13,888 nucleotides of DNA from assembly GCA_964368365.1 (NCBI GenBank), contig CAYJBK010000008.1, positions 1 through 13,888 on the forward strand. Direction: 5' to 3'. The notes below the pieces were generated by a model. The model had not been told where the DNA came from. It saw only the letters and a list, made by a program, of their open reading frames with translations, and did no database searches. This DNA comes from an uncultured Candidatus Saccharibacteria bacterium (lineage in GTDB: Bacteria > Patescibacteriota > Minisyncoccia > Phycocordibacterales > JBBUBG01). Made by a program: the position numbers and the translations under genes. Shown here in pieces: positions 3,032-11,524 of the stretch; within the stretch, counting starts at the first letter, position 1; each line of letters opens with the position of its first letter.

Positions 3032-3185
3032 AGGGTAATGATACCACCGTCAGGTGACCCCGACCTATGAATCGACGGGGATAACTACCTGTCCGCCCGG
3101 AGGGAATCGAGTATCACTTTTATCACGCAGATACGTTAGATATCCACAGTCTTATTAGAACTAGCTATGATATACTTCATTATAT
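3032..3185. promoter_or_regulatory. Divergent intergenic region, expected to carry the promoters for 359..3031 (-) and 3186..3920 (+)
   Basis: AT-rich 3' half (…cttattagaactagctatgatatacttcattatatATG) with several TATA-like hexamers. A short GC hairpin (CCCCGaC…GaCGGGG, ~3058-3085) lies just upstream of the minus-strand start. No exact -35/-10 assignment is possible by eye. Confidence 0.3.
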
Positions 3186-3920
3186 ATGGCCACTAGTTCA
3201 ATAAGTATTTCTCACAGGCACTGGTCTTTAAAAGAGAAGGCCCGTGCGCTCCGTGCTGAAGGAAAAAGTTTCTCGGAAATCATGCGCGAGGTCCCGGTAG
3301 CAAAATCTACGATAAGTCTATGGTGCAAAAATATTAGCCTTACCGAAGATCAGAGATCGCGCCTCGCATCAAAAAAGAAAGGTAACTACATGAATGGTAT
3401 TCGAGCCATTCAAACAATGTTCTGGGGCAAGCAGTGCGATGCGTTTCAAGCAGGTCAGGAAAAATATAAACTCTTCAAAAACGACCCGGAATTTGTTGCC
3501 GGCCTCATGCTCTATTGGGCAGAGGGAAGCAAAACCAGCGTTGCGGCGCTTGCAAACTCCGATGCAGATATGATCAAGTTTATTACTAATTGGTTTAAGA
3601 AATTTTTTGGATTACCGACCACTTCTTTCAGTATTCACCTACATATGCATTCCGGTCAAAACGAGCGAGAAATTAAGGAGTACTGGTCCGGCATTACCGC
3701 AATACCCTTGCTCAATTTCCAAAAAAGCTTTATAAAGCCAGAGGGGTCAGGGTACAGAAAAAACTTGCTCTACAAAGGAACCGTGAAAGTTAGCGCACGT
3801 GGAAAAGGAAGCACCTATCTTCTCTACACCATATTTGGTTCAATCGCCCAGTTTCTCGAAGACACAACCAACAAAAAGGCCCGAGTGGAGAGTTGGCTCG
3901 AGAAGTTACAATACGCATAA
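3186..3920 (+). CDS. HTH-domain protein with LAGLIDADG-like (homing-endonuclease-like) C-terminal domain
   Basis: 244-aa ORF. The N-terminus (LKEKARALRAEGKSFSEIMREVPVAKSTISLWCKN) is a resolvase/transposase-type helix-turn-helix. 'PEFVAGLMLYWAEGSKTS…ADMIKFITNWFKKFFGLP' resembles the LAGLIDADG helix (acidic residue, then G-S) followed by the alpha/beta core, as in LAGLIDADG_3-type proteins. Lower GC than the neighbouring genes. Stops 6 nt before tRNA-Lys. Confidence 0.45.
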   Translation: MATSSISISHRHWSLKEKARALRAEGKSFSEIMREVPVAKSTISLWCKNISLTEDQRSRLASKKKGNYMNGIRAIQTMFWGKQCDAFQAGQEKYKLFKNDPEFVAGLMLYWAEGSKTSVAALANSDADMIKFITNWFKKFFGLPTTSFSIHLHMHSGQNEREIKEYWSGITAIPLLNFQKSFIKPEGSGYRKNLLYKGTVKVSARGKGSTYLLYTIFGSIAQFLEDTTNKKARVESWLEKLQYA

Positions 3921-3926
3921 GTATAT

Positions 3927-3999
3927 CCGCCCGTAGCTCAGTTGGTAGAGCAGCTCGCTCTTAACGAGATGGTCGGGGGTTCAATTCCCTCCGGGCGGA
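3927..3999 (+). tRNA. tRNA-Lys (anticodon CTT)
   Basis: Hand-folded cloverleaf. Acceptor CCGCCCG/CGGGCGG (7 bp). T8A9, D-arm GCTC-AGTTGGTA-GAGC. Anticodon stem GCTCG/CGAGA (4 bp plus a 27-43 mismatch), loop CTCTTAA (U33, anticodon CTT, A37). Variable loop TGGTC. T-arm GGGGG-TTCAATT-CCCTC. Discriminator A. CCA not encoded. Near-identical in layout to E. coli tRNA-Lys. Confidence 0.85.
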
Positions 4000-4039
4000 C
4001 AAGATTAGGCAAGGAAACGTGGTATTATAACTACCACTT

Positions 4040-6499: not shown

Positions 6500-6946
6500 C
6501 TAGTTCCCAAATGCACCACTCCCACGAGGGTTGTTGCCTGGTATAAGACGAGGGTTCTGCTGTTGGATAGCTTTCGGTATGATCGATTCAACATTTCCAA
6601 TGCTATCCTGTCCAACCCCGAACGTGTTTCCAATTACACGAACAAGACCCCACACGGACACCATCACAAAAAGTGCGATAATACCCTGGATCATGCGCTC
6701 GCGTCCCTCTGTGCGAGCCTCCGTATCCTTTGCCTTAAATATGTATTCTGCCAAGCCATAGAAGAAGTATAGGAGAGCGAGGACAAGAAGAATCGGGATA
6801 CCCAGATCCATCAAATTCTTAATCGTAAGAACAATCGTTGTGACTGTTGTATTCTGAGAAGTACCTTGTGCAAACGCTGCGAGCGGGAGTGCGAGAGCAG
6901 CTGCTCCCACAATCGACGCACGAACTGTTCTGAGAACCTTTTTCAT
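6500..6946 (-). CDS. Secreted small membrane protein, paralog 2 (TrbC/VirB2-like pilin architecture)
   Basis: 148 aa. Signal peptide MKKVLRTVRASIVGAAALALPLAAFA|QG (AxA site). Core LLVLALLYFFYGLAEYIFKAKDTEARTEGRERMIQGIIALFVMVSVWGLVRVIGNTF. Gly/Pro/Asn-rich C-terminal tail. A ~90-nt AT-rich spacer upstream may carry an internal promoter. Confidence 0.7.
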   Translation of the reverse strand: MKKVLRTVRASIVGAAALALPLAAFAQGTSQNTTVTTIVLTIKNLMDLGIPILLVLALLYFFYGLAEYIFKAKDTEARTEGRERMIQGIIALFVMVSVWGLVRVIGNTFGVGQDSIGNVESIIPKAIQQQNPRLIPGNNPRGSGAFGN

Positions 6947-7036: not shown

Positions 7037-7420
7037 CTACCGAAGCTTTGGGTACGCAGGGAGCACAACATCTGTCGAAGGATCTAGCTGGAACGTATTG
7101 GTGAGTACTCCAACGAGGCCCCAAACAGAGAGCATTACAAAAAGACCAACGAGACCGTAGACGATCTTATTTCGCGCCTCGTCACGAGTCTTGTCGTCAG
7201 CTCGGATGAACGTAATCGCGCCGTAGAGAAAGTATATGAGTGCGGCAACAAAGAGAAGGGGCACCACGGACTGAAAGGTACAGAGTAGAAAGTTAACAAG
7301 CGCCGACAAGCTTCTTACGGGCGCACCGCACCCCGACCCCGCGCCTTGGGCAAAAACCCAGAGCGGAGTAGCCGCAAGCAGCAGCGAATAAAAGCCTACT
7401 TGTATGCGTTTTTTCATCAT
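7037..7420 (-). CDS. Secreted small membrane protein, paralog 3 (TrbC/VirB2-like pilin architecture)
   Basis: 127 aa. Signal peptide MMKKRIQVGFYSLLLAATPLWVFA|QG. Cys pair (GCGAP…LLC). Core FVAALIYFLYGAITFIRADDKTRDEARNKIVYGLVGLFVMLSVWGLVGVLTNTF, the closest match to paralogs 1 and 2. Start overlaps the paralog 4 stop (ATGA). Confidence 0.7.
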   Translation of the reverse strand: MMKKRIQVGFYSLLLAATPLWVFAQGAGSGCGAPVRSLSALVNFLLCTFQSVVPLLFVAALIYFLYGAITFIRADDKTRDEARNKIVYGLVGLFVMLSVWGLVGVLTNTFQLDPSTDVVLPAYPKLR

Positions 7421-7848
7421 GATGGTTTTGTAATTGCGTTTATTGTGCCTTGTATTACTTCCGCGAGAACACCGGAACCCAAGAGAACCGCCGCTCCAAT
7501 CACGGTGTATTTGAAAATCTGATGTGCGGAATCAATCGCTTTCTGGTCACCCAGGGCTGTCACATACTTAAAGCCCGCGTAGAGAAATGCGAGCACTATA
7601 ACCACAACTCCAATCTGCATCAAAGCATCTACAATCTTCTTGGGAAGCGACCGGATATCGAGGGAAGATCCGGGACCGTCACAGTTGAGCGGGTCGCACA
7701 GAGTGGGCTGGCCACCTCCCGGGGGCTCGGTACCTCCGGGCTTTTTCGCGCCCTGAGCGAACGAAACGAGTGGCAAAACAAATAACGCAATAATAAAAGT
7801 AAACACTGCCGCCTTCTTTAAATACCCTGGCACTGGAATACTCATCAT
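7417..7848 (-). CDS. Secreted small membrane protein, paralog 4 (TrbC/VirB2-like pilin architecture)
   Basis: 143 aa. Signal peptide MMSIPVPGYLKKAAVFTFIIALFVLPLVSFA|QG. Gly/Pro-rich segment with a Cys pair (LCDPLNCDG). Core VVVIVLAFLYAGFKYVTALGDQKAIDSAHQIFKYTVIGAAVLLGSGVLAEVIQG. Start overlaps the paralog 5 stop (ATGA). Confidence 0.7.
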   Translation of the reverse strand: MMSIPVPGYLKKAAVFTFIIALFVLPLVSFAQGAKKPGGTEPPGGGQPTLCDPLNCDGPGSSLDIRSLPKKIVDALMQIGVVVIVLAFLYAGFKYVTALGDQKAIDSAHQIFKYTVIGAAVLLGSGVLAEVIQGTINAITKPS

Positions 7849-9542: not shown

Positions 9543-10115
9543 CTATGTCTTCATATAGAGCAGTCCGTAATGGTGCGCACCCGCGAAGAATGCGTCCTTA
9601 TACAAGAAGCCGACCTTGCCGAGAAGCTCTTTGGCTGTGCCTTCTGAGACCACCTGGTCTGGATGTGGCCCCATGCCCGCGAAGGAGGCGGACCAGTCGA
9701 CGACGAGGATCAGAGCACCGGGCTTCAAAACTCTCGCCAGTTCAAGAAGGAAATGCTCCTTATGCTCGGACTGAAAAAGAACATTGGCGAGCACAGCCGC
9801 GTCGAGCGAAGAATCGACAAGCTTCGTACCCCCCAGTGTGTCGAGGTTGCACCACACGACCTCAAGCTGCCCCACCTTTTTAGCTTCCGCCTCTTTCTTG
9901 AGGCGCGAGAGGAGATCCTTCTGAACGTCCAGGGCGTATACGCGGCCAGATGGACCAACGGCCGCGGCCAGCGCAAACGCGTAGGCACCTGTTCCAGTGC
10001 CAAAATCAGCAACATGCATCCCCTCCGTAAGATGCAGGCGCCGAACATTATCCTCCGGATTCGAGAATTCCATGTGCTTTAGTATACCACCTCCAGCCAC
10101 ATCCTCTGTGGACAT
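9543..10115 (-). CDS. Small class I SAM-dependent methyltransferase (first gene of the minus-strand operon)
   Basis: Track ORF 9543..10409, trimmed to ATG 10115 (MSTEDVAGGG…). The longer N-terminal extension runs through the REP palindrome and the start of the divergent gene, and is low-complexity. Motif I VADFGTGTGAYAFALA, acidic post-I ALDVQKD, motif II/III region LKPGALILVVDW. An alternative start at ATG 10073 (MEFSNPEDN…) is possible. Confidence 0.7.
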   Translation of the reverse strand: MSTEDVAGGGILKHMEFSNPEDNVRRLHLTEGMHVADFGTGTGAYAFALAAAVGPSGRVYALDVQKDLLSRLKKEAEAKKVGQLEVVWCNLDTLGGTKLVDSSLDAAVLANVLFQSEHKEHFLLELARVLKPGALILVVDWSASFAGMGPHPDQVVSEGTAKELLGKVGFLYKDAFFAGAHHYGLLYMKT

Positions 10116-10116
10116 C

Positions 10117-10141
10117 CACTTGGGAGCCTGGCTCCCAAGTG
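10117..10141. repeat. REP-like perfect palindrome, copy 1 (CACTTGGGAGCC-T-GGCTCCCAAGTG)
   Basis: 12-bp arms around a single T. Lies in the 39-nt divergent intergenic region between the MTase start (10115) and the RAYT start (10155). Confidence 0.85.
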
Positions 10142-10154
10142 CTATACTCCTGCA

Positions 10155-10796
10155 ATGGGAATGAGAAAAATAGTGCTTGCTGACGACGAGTATTATCACA
10201 TCTATAATCAGGGGGTAGACAAACGCGACGTGTTTTTGGACGAAGAAGACTACAAACGACTCCTGAAAAGCATTCGGGTATTTAATCAAGAAGAGATCAG
10301 TGGAAGTATTCATGAGTTTTCTTTTGGAAGCAAAAAGAAAACTCCTCCGCTCGTAGACATAATCGCCTACTGTCTTAATCCCAATCATTATCATTTTATC
10401 CTTAAACAAAATACGGAGCGGGGCATCGAGAAGTTTATGCAGCGCATCGGCACAGGGTATTCAAACTATTTTAATAAAAAATACCAGAGAAAAGGACCCC
10501 TTTTCCAGGGAAAGTTCAAATCAAAACATGTCGACGGAAACGATTACCTTGTCTACTTGTCCGCCTATGTAAACCTCAACAACGAAATTCATGGACTTGG
10601 GAGCCTGGCTCCCAAGTCCAGTTTCTCTGAATACATTTCTCCTCAGACAAAGGATGCGGTCTGCGCAAAAGAGATTATTTTAGGTCAGTTTAAAAACCAT
10701 GGGGAGTACGCACTGTTTGCGCGAGATTCAATTTTAGAAACCGCACAGCGTCGCAGACAAGACGCATTATTAGATACAATCTTAGGGGATATTTAG
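10155..10796 (+). CDS. HuH Y1 transposase of the IS200/RAYT (REP-associated tyrosine transposase) type
   Basis: 213 aa. HuH motif in LNPNHYHFILK. C-terminal catalytic-Tyr region GNDYLVYLSAYVNLNNEIHG parallels E. coli RayT DYIYINPVKHG (Y-[IV]-N-[PL]-x-x-x-HG). Flanked on both sides by the same palindrome in inverted orientation. Confidence 0.65.
   Translation: MGMRKIVLADDEYYHIYNQGVDKRDVFLDEEDYKRLLKSIRVFNQEEISGSIHEFSFGSKKKTPPLVDIIAYCLNPNHYHFILKQNTERGIEKFMQRIGTGYSNYFNKKYQRKGPLFQGKFKSKHVDGNDYLVYLSAYVNLNNEIHGLGSLAPKSSFSEYISPQTKDAVCAKEIILGQFKNHGEYALFARDSILETAQRRRQDALLDTILGDI
10593..10619. repeat. REP-like perfect palindrome, copy 2 (GGACTTGGGAGCC-T-GGCTCCCAAGTCC), lying in-frame inside the RAYT coding sequence
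   Basis: 13-bp arms, 27 nt in total, equal to exactly nine in-frame codons encoding GLGSLAPKS. It immediately follows the conserved HG of the catalytic region. Confidence 0.85.
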
Positions 10797-10808: not shown

Positions 10809-10831
10809 ACTTGGGAGCCAGGCTCCCAAGT
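10809..10831. repeat. REP-like perfect palindrome, copy 3 (ACTTGGGAGCC-A-GGCTCCCAAGT), in inverted orientation relative to copy 1
   Basis: 11-bp arms. The central base is A instead of T, so it is the reverse complement of copies 1 and 2. Begins 13 nt after the RAYT stop. Confidence 0.85.
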
Positions 10832-10861
10832 GAGGAGGGGCTGGTGTATACTGGCGCTACG

Positions 10862-11524
10862 ATGCGCTCCGTCGTCTTAGTTCTTACACTTACAGCAATC
10901 GCGCTTCTTATATTTAAAGTAAACTTCATGCACACACCGCAGACATTTATTCCTATCGGCAACTCATATTCTATCGGCGAAGGTGTGAGCGAATCGGAGC
11001 GATGGCCGAATTTGCTTGCGAATCATATGACGCAAGAAGGAAAAGCCACCAAACTTCTCGCGAATCCGGGGCGCACGGGATGGACCACGCGCCAGGCACT
11101 GGAGAATGAACTGCCGCTCGTCGAAAAAGAACGTCCAAGTCTCATCACCATCCTTATTGGCGTGAACGATCTCGTGCAGGGTGTGTCCGTAGAAGAATTT
11201 GAGAGAAATCTCCGCGAGATCCTAGACCGGAGCGAGAAAGCGCTTCAGAAGCCTGGAAAAATAATCTTGATCACGATCCCTGACTTTACACTCACCCCAT
11301 CGGGAAAATCCTTTGGAGACCCGGCAACGATTCAGAAAAAGCTCGCCGAGTTTAATGCCGTGATTAAAAAAGAGGCAGCAGATAAAGGTCTCCCGCTTGC
11401 GGATATATATGAAGTAAGCGTCCAACTCGGGAGCGACTCGGCATACGTAGCCAAAGACGGGCTGCACCCTTCCCCCACTGCGTATATTGAATGGGAAAAG
11501 GAAATCTACTCGGCTATCAAATAG
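10862..11524 (+). CDS. SGNH/GDSL-family hydrolase (lipase/esterase-like), N-terminally membrane-anchored or secreted
   Basis: Track ORF 10805..11524 begins with a TTG inside the palindrome. It is trimmed to ATG 10862 (MRSVVLVLTLTAIALLIF…, a signal/anchor). Block I GNSYSIGEG, block II ANPGRTGW, block III ILIGVNDL (GxND), block V DGLHPS (DxxH). Confidence 0.65.
   Translation: MRSVVLVLTLTAIALLIFKVNFMHTPQTFIPIGNSYSIGEGVSESERWPNLLANHMTQEGKATKLLANPGRTGWTTRQALENELPLVEKERPSLITILIGVNDLVQGVSVEEFERNLREILDRSEKALQKPGKIILITIPDFTLTPSGKSFGDPATIQKKLAEFNAVIKKEAADKGLPLADIYEVSVQLGSDSAYVAKDGLHPSPTAYIEWEKEIYSAIK

Follow-up and report, generated by a model that had tools for sequence, protein, structure and literature searches.

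A REP-like palindrome carried in frame inside a RAYT-like gene of a Saccharibacteria bacterium appears to evolve in concert with the copies flanking the gene

The window analysed here, 13,888 nucleotides (nt) of contig CAYJBK010000008.1 (assembly GCA_964368365.1) from an uncultured Candidatus Saccharibacteria bacterium, carries a gene for a protein related to the REP-associated tyrosine transposases (RAYT; REP, repetitive extragenic palindromic), and within the reading frame of this gene lies a 27-nt palindrome that an earlier inspection of the letters (hereafter the sequence-only reading) had described as a REP copy inside its own transposase gene. We found that this palindrome is one of three copies of a cognate hairpin at the gene, and that a fourth copy, at a second internal site termed IN-1, is frequent among close homologs. 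We lean towards the interpretation that these hairpins are the cognate REP-like single-stranded DNA (ssDNA) sites of the encoded enzyme, kept identical by copying from site to site and allowing the enzyme to act on its own gene.

The sequence CTTGGGAGCC[T/A]GGCTCCCAAG occurs three times in the window: in the promoter region (UP), in frame (IN-2) and past the stop codon (DOWN) (for coordinates see Table 1). Positions 10593-10619 read GGACTTGGGAGCCTGGCTCCCAAGTCC, a palindrome of 13+1+13, and in this internal copy the pairing reaches one base further on either side. The palindrome is codon-aligned in the open reading frame (ORF), (10593-10155)/3 being 146, and encodes G147-L-G-S-L-A-P-K-S155 with 58 codons remaining after it; the in-frame palindrome of nine codons is thereby confirmed. 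Exact copies of the 21-mer core lie at 10119-10139, 10596-10616 and 10810-10830, and no such copies arose in 200 dinucleotide-preserving shuffles. Throughout the window there are four perfect hairpins with a stem of at least 8 bp, every one within or adjoining the RAYT-like gene. Folding of the region, proposed as a check by the sequence-only reading, gave an ssDNA hairpin of -16.6 kcal/mol (z = -5.9) for the internal copy. The centre base is A in the DOWN copy and T in the UP and IN-2 copies, so that DOWN is formally inverted, by a single base only.

The closest ortholog (locus L082, protein P0001) is 69% identical and syntenic, with the same order of methyltransferase, RAYT-like gene, GDSL lipase and gyrA, which suggests vertical inheritance and argues against recent mobility. 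Its hairpin reads ACTTGGAAGTT.AACTTCCAAGT at all three sites, compared with ACTTGGGAGCC.GGCTCCCAAGT in the window, corresponding to three compensatory pair changes in each copy. In the internal copy of the ortholog, the substitutions in the left arm are silent (GGG to GGA, AGC to AGT) and those in the right arm convert A152-P153 into T-S. Because pairing is kept through amino-acid changes and all copies are altered alike, it is, as judged from sequence comparison, the DNA palindrome and not the peptide that is maintained; and because nine identical double substitutions would hardly arise independently, the hairpin has probably been copied between sites. Orthologs encoding the same nine residues with other codons and lacking any palindrome would have made the palindrome coincidental according to the sequence-only reading, and the opposite was seen, the orthologs retaining the palindrome and altering the residues. 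Covariation at IN-2 was analysed for 20 genes, the sequences of which were picked by eye, share the same register (H-x-L/I start) and are mostly palindromic: 91% of the cells are paired, 8 of the 12 pairs change on both sides, and the observed score was reached by none of 500 shuffles. Slid registers never exceed 51% pairing, and few G-U pairs occur. Some genes carry two hairpin types, UP and IN-2 differing from IN-1 and DOWN in L002, and UP and IN-1 differing from IN-2 and DOWN in L006; these mixed states fit piecemeal copying and look like intermediates of homogenisation or of module exchange.

For the family-wide comparison we used 80 fetched genome loci together with the window, giving 86 homologous genes, the ortholog L082 being additional. 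Perfect hairpins cluster at four positions relative to the start of the gene: UP at -60 to -30, IN-1 at +150 to 210, IN-2 at +420 to 510 and DOWN at +630 to 750, at or across the stop codon. Among the 66 genes with an UP hairpin, 38 have a copy of it (three mismatches at most) at IN-1, 21 have one at IN-2 and 45 have one at DOWN. An internal copy differing from the gene's own UP hairpin by no more than one mismatch was found in 45 of these 66 genes, as against 0.37% of cross-locus pairs. The hairpin sequence varies widely among genomes (ACTTGGGAGCC.., ACTTAGAAGCT.., TCCAAGGTTCGACCTTGGA, CTATCGAGGTTCAACCTCGATAG), one gene generally having one type, and paralogs within a single locus each possess their own type (L004, L049, L062). 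Of 61 internal copies, 48 have their palindrome centred on codon position 2, the site positions and the reading frame are conserved down to about 36% identity, and the density of hairpins in the gene interior is about 50 times that of the flanks. Of the 101 closer homologs, 87 have a 7-mer peptide compatible with a reverse-complementary coding sequence at IN-2 and 62 have one at IN-1, the peptide often being the same at both sites (for instance QLGSLASKS twice in P0013). The second option of the sequence-only reading, a coding sequence containing the hairpin of its own enzyme, was supported and holds far more generally than proposed: internal cognate copies, a search for which had been suggested, are present across this Patescibacteria family at fixed positions, in either or both of the two loops, and evolve with the flanking copies. 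In three loci (L007 10614-10632, L049 9445-9465 and L066 6342-6366) the DOWN hairpin spans the stop codon, which is provided by its loop (GGT TGA ACC); the IN-2 copy of the same hairpin in L007 has the loop flipped to GGT TCA ACC and codes for G-S-T.

The sequence-only reading had left it open whether a REP had been inserted in frame into the RAYT. It had placed the site at a region of E. coli RayT written as HG-WVKQVSD-WPFSTF; in a motif alignment by eye, HG-WVKQVSDW-PFSTF lines up with HG-LGSLAPKS-SFSEY of the window, and the loop between H146 and S156 is of equal length. The wider alignment by eye sets YIYINPVKHG-WVKQVSDW-PFSTF of E. coli RayT beside YVNLNNEIHG-LGSLAPKS-SFSEY of the window; a profile alignment of the two proteins, weak in itself (hhalign E = 0.047), pairs HG with HG and is only consistent with the alignment by eye. 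A palindrome-free loop of eight residues and of equal length is found in L009, L014, L020, L041, L047 and L062, and the motif H-x-LGSxASK-SSW-x-EY in 28 of 28 close homologs aligned. Since the loop has the same length in E. coli RayT and in palindrome-free homologs, the palindrome is written over a native loop, the nine residues filling the surface loop after the catalytic-Tyr helix. The ortholog alignment proposed earlier thus gave residues native in position and not added length, and an in-frame insertion at IN-2 is unsupported. The IN-1 loop is variable in length, the shortest in the family being those of the window and of P0001. The A/T-rich hairpin at IN-1 of the window has a sequence unrelated to that of the cognate palindrome, is not kept in L082 and is of uncertain significance; its left part, TTTGGAAGCAA, resembles a palindrome of the L005 type and suggests a decayed copy.

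The 213-aa protein matches Pfam Y1_Tnp (5.3e-9). The histidines and tyrosine of the Y1 HUH enzymes, which are nucleases/transferases of single-stranded DNA, namely H78-Y-H80 and Y138, are conserved in the homolog alignment. As to the "conserved His-Gly of the catalytic region" of the sequence-only reading, H146-G147 is indeed conserved, but it is not the catalytic motif, which consists of H78-Y79-H80 plus Y138. About 3000 homologs, mostly of 208-230 aa and aligning from end to end, are known mainly from Patescibacteria, and some sources label them RayT. The score against the NCBIfam equivalog NF047646 (REP_Tyr_transpos) is 27 bits and does not reach the cut-off of 80. The Y motif of the window is Y138-V-N-L-N-N (family consensus Y[VI]NLN-x), different from the Y---NP of class 2. 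The AlphaFold model (pLDDT 83.9) has as its closest PDB fold by Foldseek 4ER8_A, E. coli TnpA-REP with a REP hairpin (E = 1.3e-5), followed by the TnpA proteins of IS608 and ISDra2; a PDB sequence search with the same protein returned nothing at E <= 1, and Pfam gave no helix-turn-helix (HTH) domain. In the otherwise confident model, low-confidence loops are formed by residues 54-66 (IN-1) and 146-155 (IN-2). The public gene call on the contig (P0002) covers 10437-10796 and begins at M95; its 119 aa lack the HuH motif and the rest of the N-terminal half. Another assembly has a record of the complete 213-aa product; the RAYT-like gene is intact and the 119-aa call is a truncated one.

Table 1. 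Coordinates of the features at the RAYT-like gene in the window.
Feature	Position	Strand	Description
Promoter-like site	10120..10148	+	-35 TTGGGA in the left arm of UP, 17-nt spacer, TG-n-TATACT; consensus match only
UP copy	10117..10141	.	CACTTGGGAGCC-T-GGCTCCCAAGTG, 12-bp arms; ssDNA fold -12.3 kcal/mol, z = -3.9
RAYT-like Y1 HUH (TnpA-Y1) ORF, intact, 213 aa	10155..10796	+	HUH motif H78-Y-H80 (10386-10394); catalytic Y138 (10566-10568)
IN-1 hairpin, A/T-rich, other sequence	10314..10344	.	GAGTTTTCTTTT-GGAAGCA-AAAAGAAAACTC, 12-bp stem, codons E54-T63; z = -3.0
IN-2 in-frame copy	10592..10620	.	14-bp arms; codons G147-S155 (GLGSLAPKS); loop directly after the catalytic-Tyr helix
DOWN copy	10809..10831	.	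ACTTGGGAGCC-A-GGCTCCCAAGT, 11-bp arms; begins 13 nt past the TAG stop

The UP copy lies within a promoter-like site. The foot of the hairpin provides the TG of the extended -10 sequence TG-n-TATACT, and the -10 box ends 6 nt ahead of the ATG at 10155, which suggests a leaderless mRNA from the predicted promoter; 6 nt is also the most frequent distance from -10 to ATG in the family. TATACT is present also in L082. A -10-like box within 5 nt after the hairpin was found for 21 of 66 UP copies and 3 of 47 DOWN copies, the level in shuffles being 9%. On the 3' side of the DOWN copy, AGGAGG (10833-10838) is followed by GTG at 10844, where the GDSL lipase gene probably starts. A candidate promoter in this place (TGTATACT, 10846-10853) was dropped, since the AGGAGG plus GTG (10833-10846) and the layout in the ortholog fit co-transcription better.

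In the interpretation that we prefer, the encoded enzyme would recognise the hairpins in ssDNA and act on them, as E. coli TnpA-REP does on REPs; in agreement with a RAYT or REPtron arrangement, the gene is flanked by cognate palindromes on both sides. The hairpin of about 20 nt would be copied from site to site by enzymatic cleavage and strand transfer, or alternatively through template switching during replication, at the conserved ACTTGG/CCAAGT foot, and the encoded peptide would be a passenger tolerated in flexible loops. The UP copy, overlapping the -35 and the extended -10, together with the internal copies would enable the protein to act on the gene encoding it, in the simplest case by self-repression. 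We infer autoregulation or self-targeting of this kind, both of which the sequence-only reading had raised.

Several observations weigh against this interpretation. The promoter is assigned by consensus match only. The loop orientation is random (about 50/50) at every site, for which reason a fixed inverted orientation of the flanking copies, in the style of a classical REPtron, was rejected. The palindromes are near-perfect and have no 5' GT[AG]G foot, bulge or guide tetranucleotide as needed by known Y1 enzymes; the three copies in the window have perfect stems with the flanks atcC/ACTTGG, atgG/ACTTGG and tgaA/ACTTGG. Copies away from the gene are rare, with none in the window and 0.27 per 10 kb (24 in 902 kb) in related flanks, which appears unlike the pattern of classical REP families. 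Since 17 of the 66 genes with an UP hairpin have no internal copy, and hairpins are missing altogether from 3 of the 86 genes (L047, L073 and L074, the gene of L047 being cut by the contig end), the internal copies are dispensable for the protein. Finally, the homogenisation could be purely replicative, by template switching at palindromes, with no role of the enzyme and no benefit for the gene.

The last point leads to an alternative that we consider unlikely yet still the most serious: the REP-like palindromes would be neutral or selfish passengers, which colonised two tolerant loops long ago and are kept alike by mutational mechanisms such as quasi-palindrome correction and template switching, without any role. 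The internal copies are often lost, as the counts for IN-1 and IN-2 given above indicate, loops of equal length exist without a palindrome, and the length of IN-1 varies in the manner of an insert present or absent. A hairpin also stands in frame in the unrelated ligA gene (see below), and the insertions of subclass 2.4, treated below, were judged to be harmless in the original article (PMC6006769). Passengers, however, do not readily account for the conservation of positions and frame among distant homologs, for the high density of hairpins inside the gene, or for the UP copy built into a promoter-like site; moreover, some internal stems outgrow the shared core, to 16 bp at most (L002, L006, L013), with mean stem lengths alike across sites.

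According to another proposal, to which we attach small credence, the hairpins would be working recombination sites for editing of the gene by its own product. They would mark the boundaries between an N-terminal module, the catalytic core and a C-terminal tail, and joining of one hairpin with another would delete a module, turning the enzyme off or, upon loss of the tail, making it hyperactive; the same reaction would also copy the hairpin between sites and so account for their concerted evolution. IN-2 sits precisely at the junction of the catalytic helix with the C-terminal extension, and the C-terminal tail of E. coli TnpA-REP is autoinhibitory, its truncation rendering the enzyme hyperactive (PMC3479197); an inhibitory role of the tail in the window protein is, however, an analogy with E. 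coli. A truncated homolog in L062 (9942-10444), which begins directly behind an IN-1 hairpin and 31 nt after an fpg-like gene, lacks the N-terminal module and has a single hairpin left at the junction; it might be a natural product of such editing, but it is one allele only, and replication slippage between repeats yields the same product. Among the 86 genes there is no allele truncated at IN-2.

We regard as very improbable that the palindromes serve as RNA-level elements, with mRNA hairpins governing stability, translation pausing or premature termination through an RNase or an RNA-binding protein. The internal copies are transcribed, as is DOWN if co-transcribed with the next gene, and the IN-2 hairpin followed by GTTTCTCT gives a terminator-like score. 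The T-run is not kept in the ortholog L082, however, and the idea of a conserved intrinsic terminator at IN-2 was discarded for this reason. The UP copy would be untranscribed if the predicted leaderless promoter is correct, G-U pairs are almost absent and the changes are Watson-Crick on both sides, and the scattered copies are mostly intergenic and in either orientation. No Rfam family was found at the hairpins. This result, together with the promoter overlap and the random orientation, favours a DNA element over an mRNA structure. Scarcely credible, at last, is a recent in-frame insertion, a palindrome arising by coincidence from a conserved peptide motif, or a decaying pseudogene: LGSxASK is conserved in close homologs and the public call is short, but the loop has its usual length, the residues change together with the flanking copies while pairing stays, and the ORF is of full length with all motifs present, so that the decay considered by the sequence-only reading is not seen.

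In-frame REPs inside tnpA-REP genes have been reported for subclass 2.4 (group 4 of Bertels) by Quentin, Siguier, Chandler and Fichant (2018, PMC6006769); the insertions are interpreted there as harmless loop insertions. As in the window family, the cognate REP-like palindromes of subclass 2.4 are found on both sides of the gene as well as within it, in frame and where the protein is peripheral or flexible. The motifs differ, being NH[IFV]H, WQ and YIxNNP in subclass 2.4 and NHYH, FQ and YVNLNN in the window family, and the GT[AG]G feet of the subclass 2.4 REPs are absent from the window-family hairpins. Unlike in subclass 2.4, the sites of the window family are fixed, before the HuH motif (residues 54-66) and after the Y (146-155), and IN-2 overlays a loop without adding length. 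Neither compensatory change in concert between the internal and the flanking copies nor a promoter-embedded copy is mentioned in the parts of that article consulted. The statement of the sequence-only reading that it knew of no description therefore holds for this family, its positions and its palindrome type, but not for in-frame REPs as such; the phenomenon is not new in kind, and the window family is a separate, unrelated branch with other positions and another type of palindrome. Internal REPs are not mentioned in Nunvar 2010 or Bertels 2017.

With E. coli RayT (TnpA-REP, YafM), the window gene shares the Y1 HUH fold (4ER8), the organisation as a single gene and the cognate hairpins on both sides; E. 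coli rayT, in contrast, has no REP inside the gene, and its REPs are imperfect, bulged, GTAG-footed and present in hundreds per genome, unlike the hairpins of the window. The motifs listed for subclass 2.1/TIRYT in Table 1 of PMC6006769 (NH[YF]H, FQ, a Y[IV]HLNP-like motif and an SS tail) match those of the window by eye (NHYH, LFQG, YVNLNN, KSSF), whereas subclass 2.1 is reported to lack REP-like sequences nearby and to possess a C-terminal HTH-like domain, the window gene having hairpins and no HTH in Pfam. The IS200/IS605 elements are characterised by the Y motif Y---Q, several near-identical copies per genome, and imperfect hairpins at the left and right ends that go with guide tetranucleotides; YVNLN of the window does not match, and the paralogs at the same locus, 30-51% identical when each is aligned to the query and carrying different hairpins, also count against membership. 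Short palindromic repeats tolerated in frame in coding genes are known as intragenic REPs and Rickettsia palindromic elements (Di Nocera 2013, PMC3733652). Those elements stand at scattered positions in unrelated genes, whereas in the window family the hairpins lie in the gene of the presumed cognate enzyme itself, at positions fixed throughout the family.

Neither the role of RAYT-type enzymes nor the way in which REP families stay uniform within genomes has been settled. In the present case an apparently single-copy, probably vertically inherited gene maintains three or four identical hairpins within about 700 nt, protein-coding copies included, and copying would thus be visible at one small locus, with compensatory changes overriding amino-acid conservation being readable from comparative sequence. 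The family is large (about 3000 relatives) and belongs to the Patescibacteria, in which the biology of mobile elements is little known. It extends the 2018 report on subclass 2.4 to a second, unrelated branch, and this suggests a recurrent relationship between enzyme and hairpin rather than an oddity.

The scattered copies lie mostly between genes, near ORF ends (L035, L065, L005). The exact 23-mer of the window is found in intergenic regions of four metagenome contigs, in one of them adjoining a homolog of 48% identity. In L011 (1597-1619) the cognate hairpin of the locus lies in the gene for NAD-dependent DNA ligase (ligA, adenylation domain), where it is in frame, is read in the frame used in the RAYT-like gene and encodes ELGSSTPKR. 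In L065 (942-2434) four perfect cognate hairpins are located in and around an RVT_1 gene directly upstream of the RAYT-like gene, one of them inside the reverse transcriptase ORF.

The neighbours of the RAYT-like gene in the window are a methyltransferase gene (9543-10076, minus strand), the GDSL lipase gene (10844-11524) and gyrA. Elsewhere in the window, a 21-nt inverted repeat (3090-3110 and 3981-4001, 95% complementary) has one arm at the 3' end of tRNA-Lys(CTT) (3927-4000), the other being a reverse-complement copy 870 nt upstream, and the pair brackets an ORF at 3186-3920 (244 aa, no Pfam match); an integration or rearrangement at the tRNA may have left this behind. Two small ORFs on the minus strand (6500-6946 and 7417-7848), situated in a run of small minus-strand ORFs, match T4SS_pilin (TrbC/VirB2-like).

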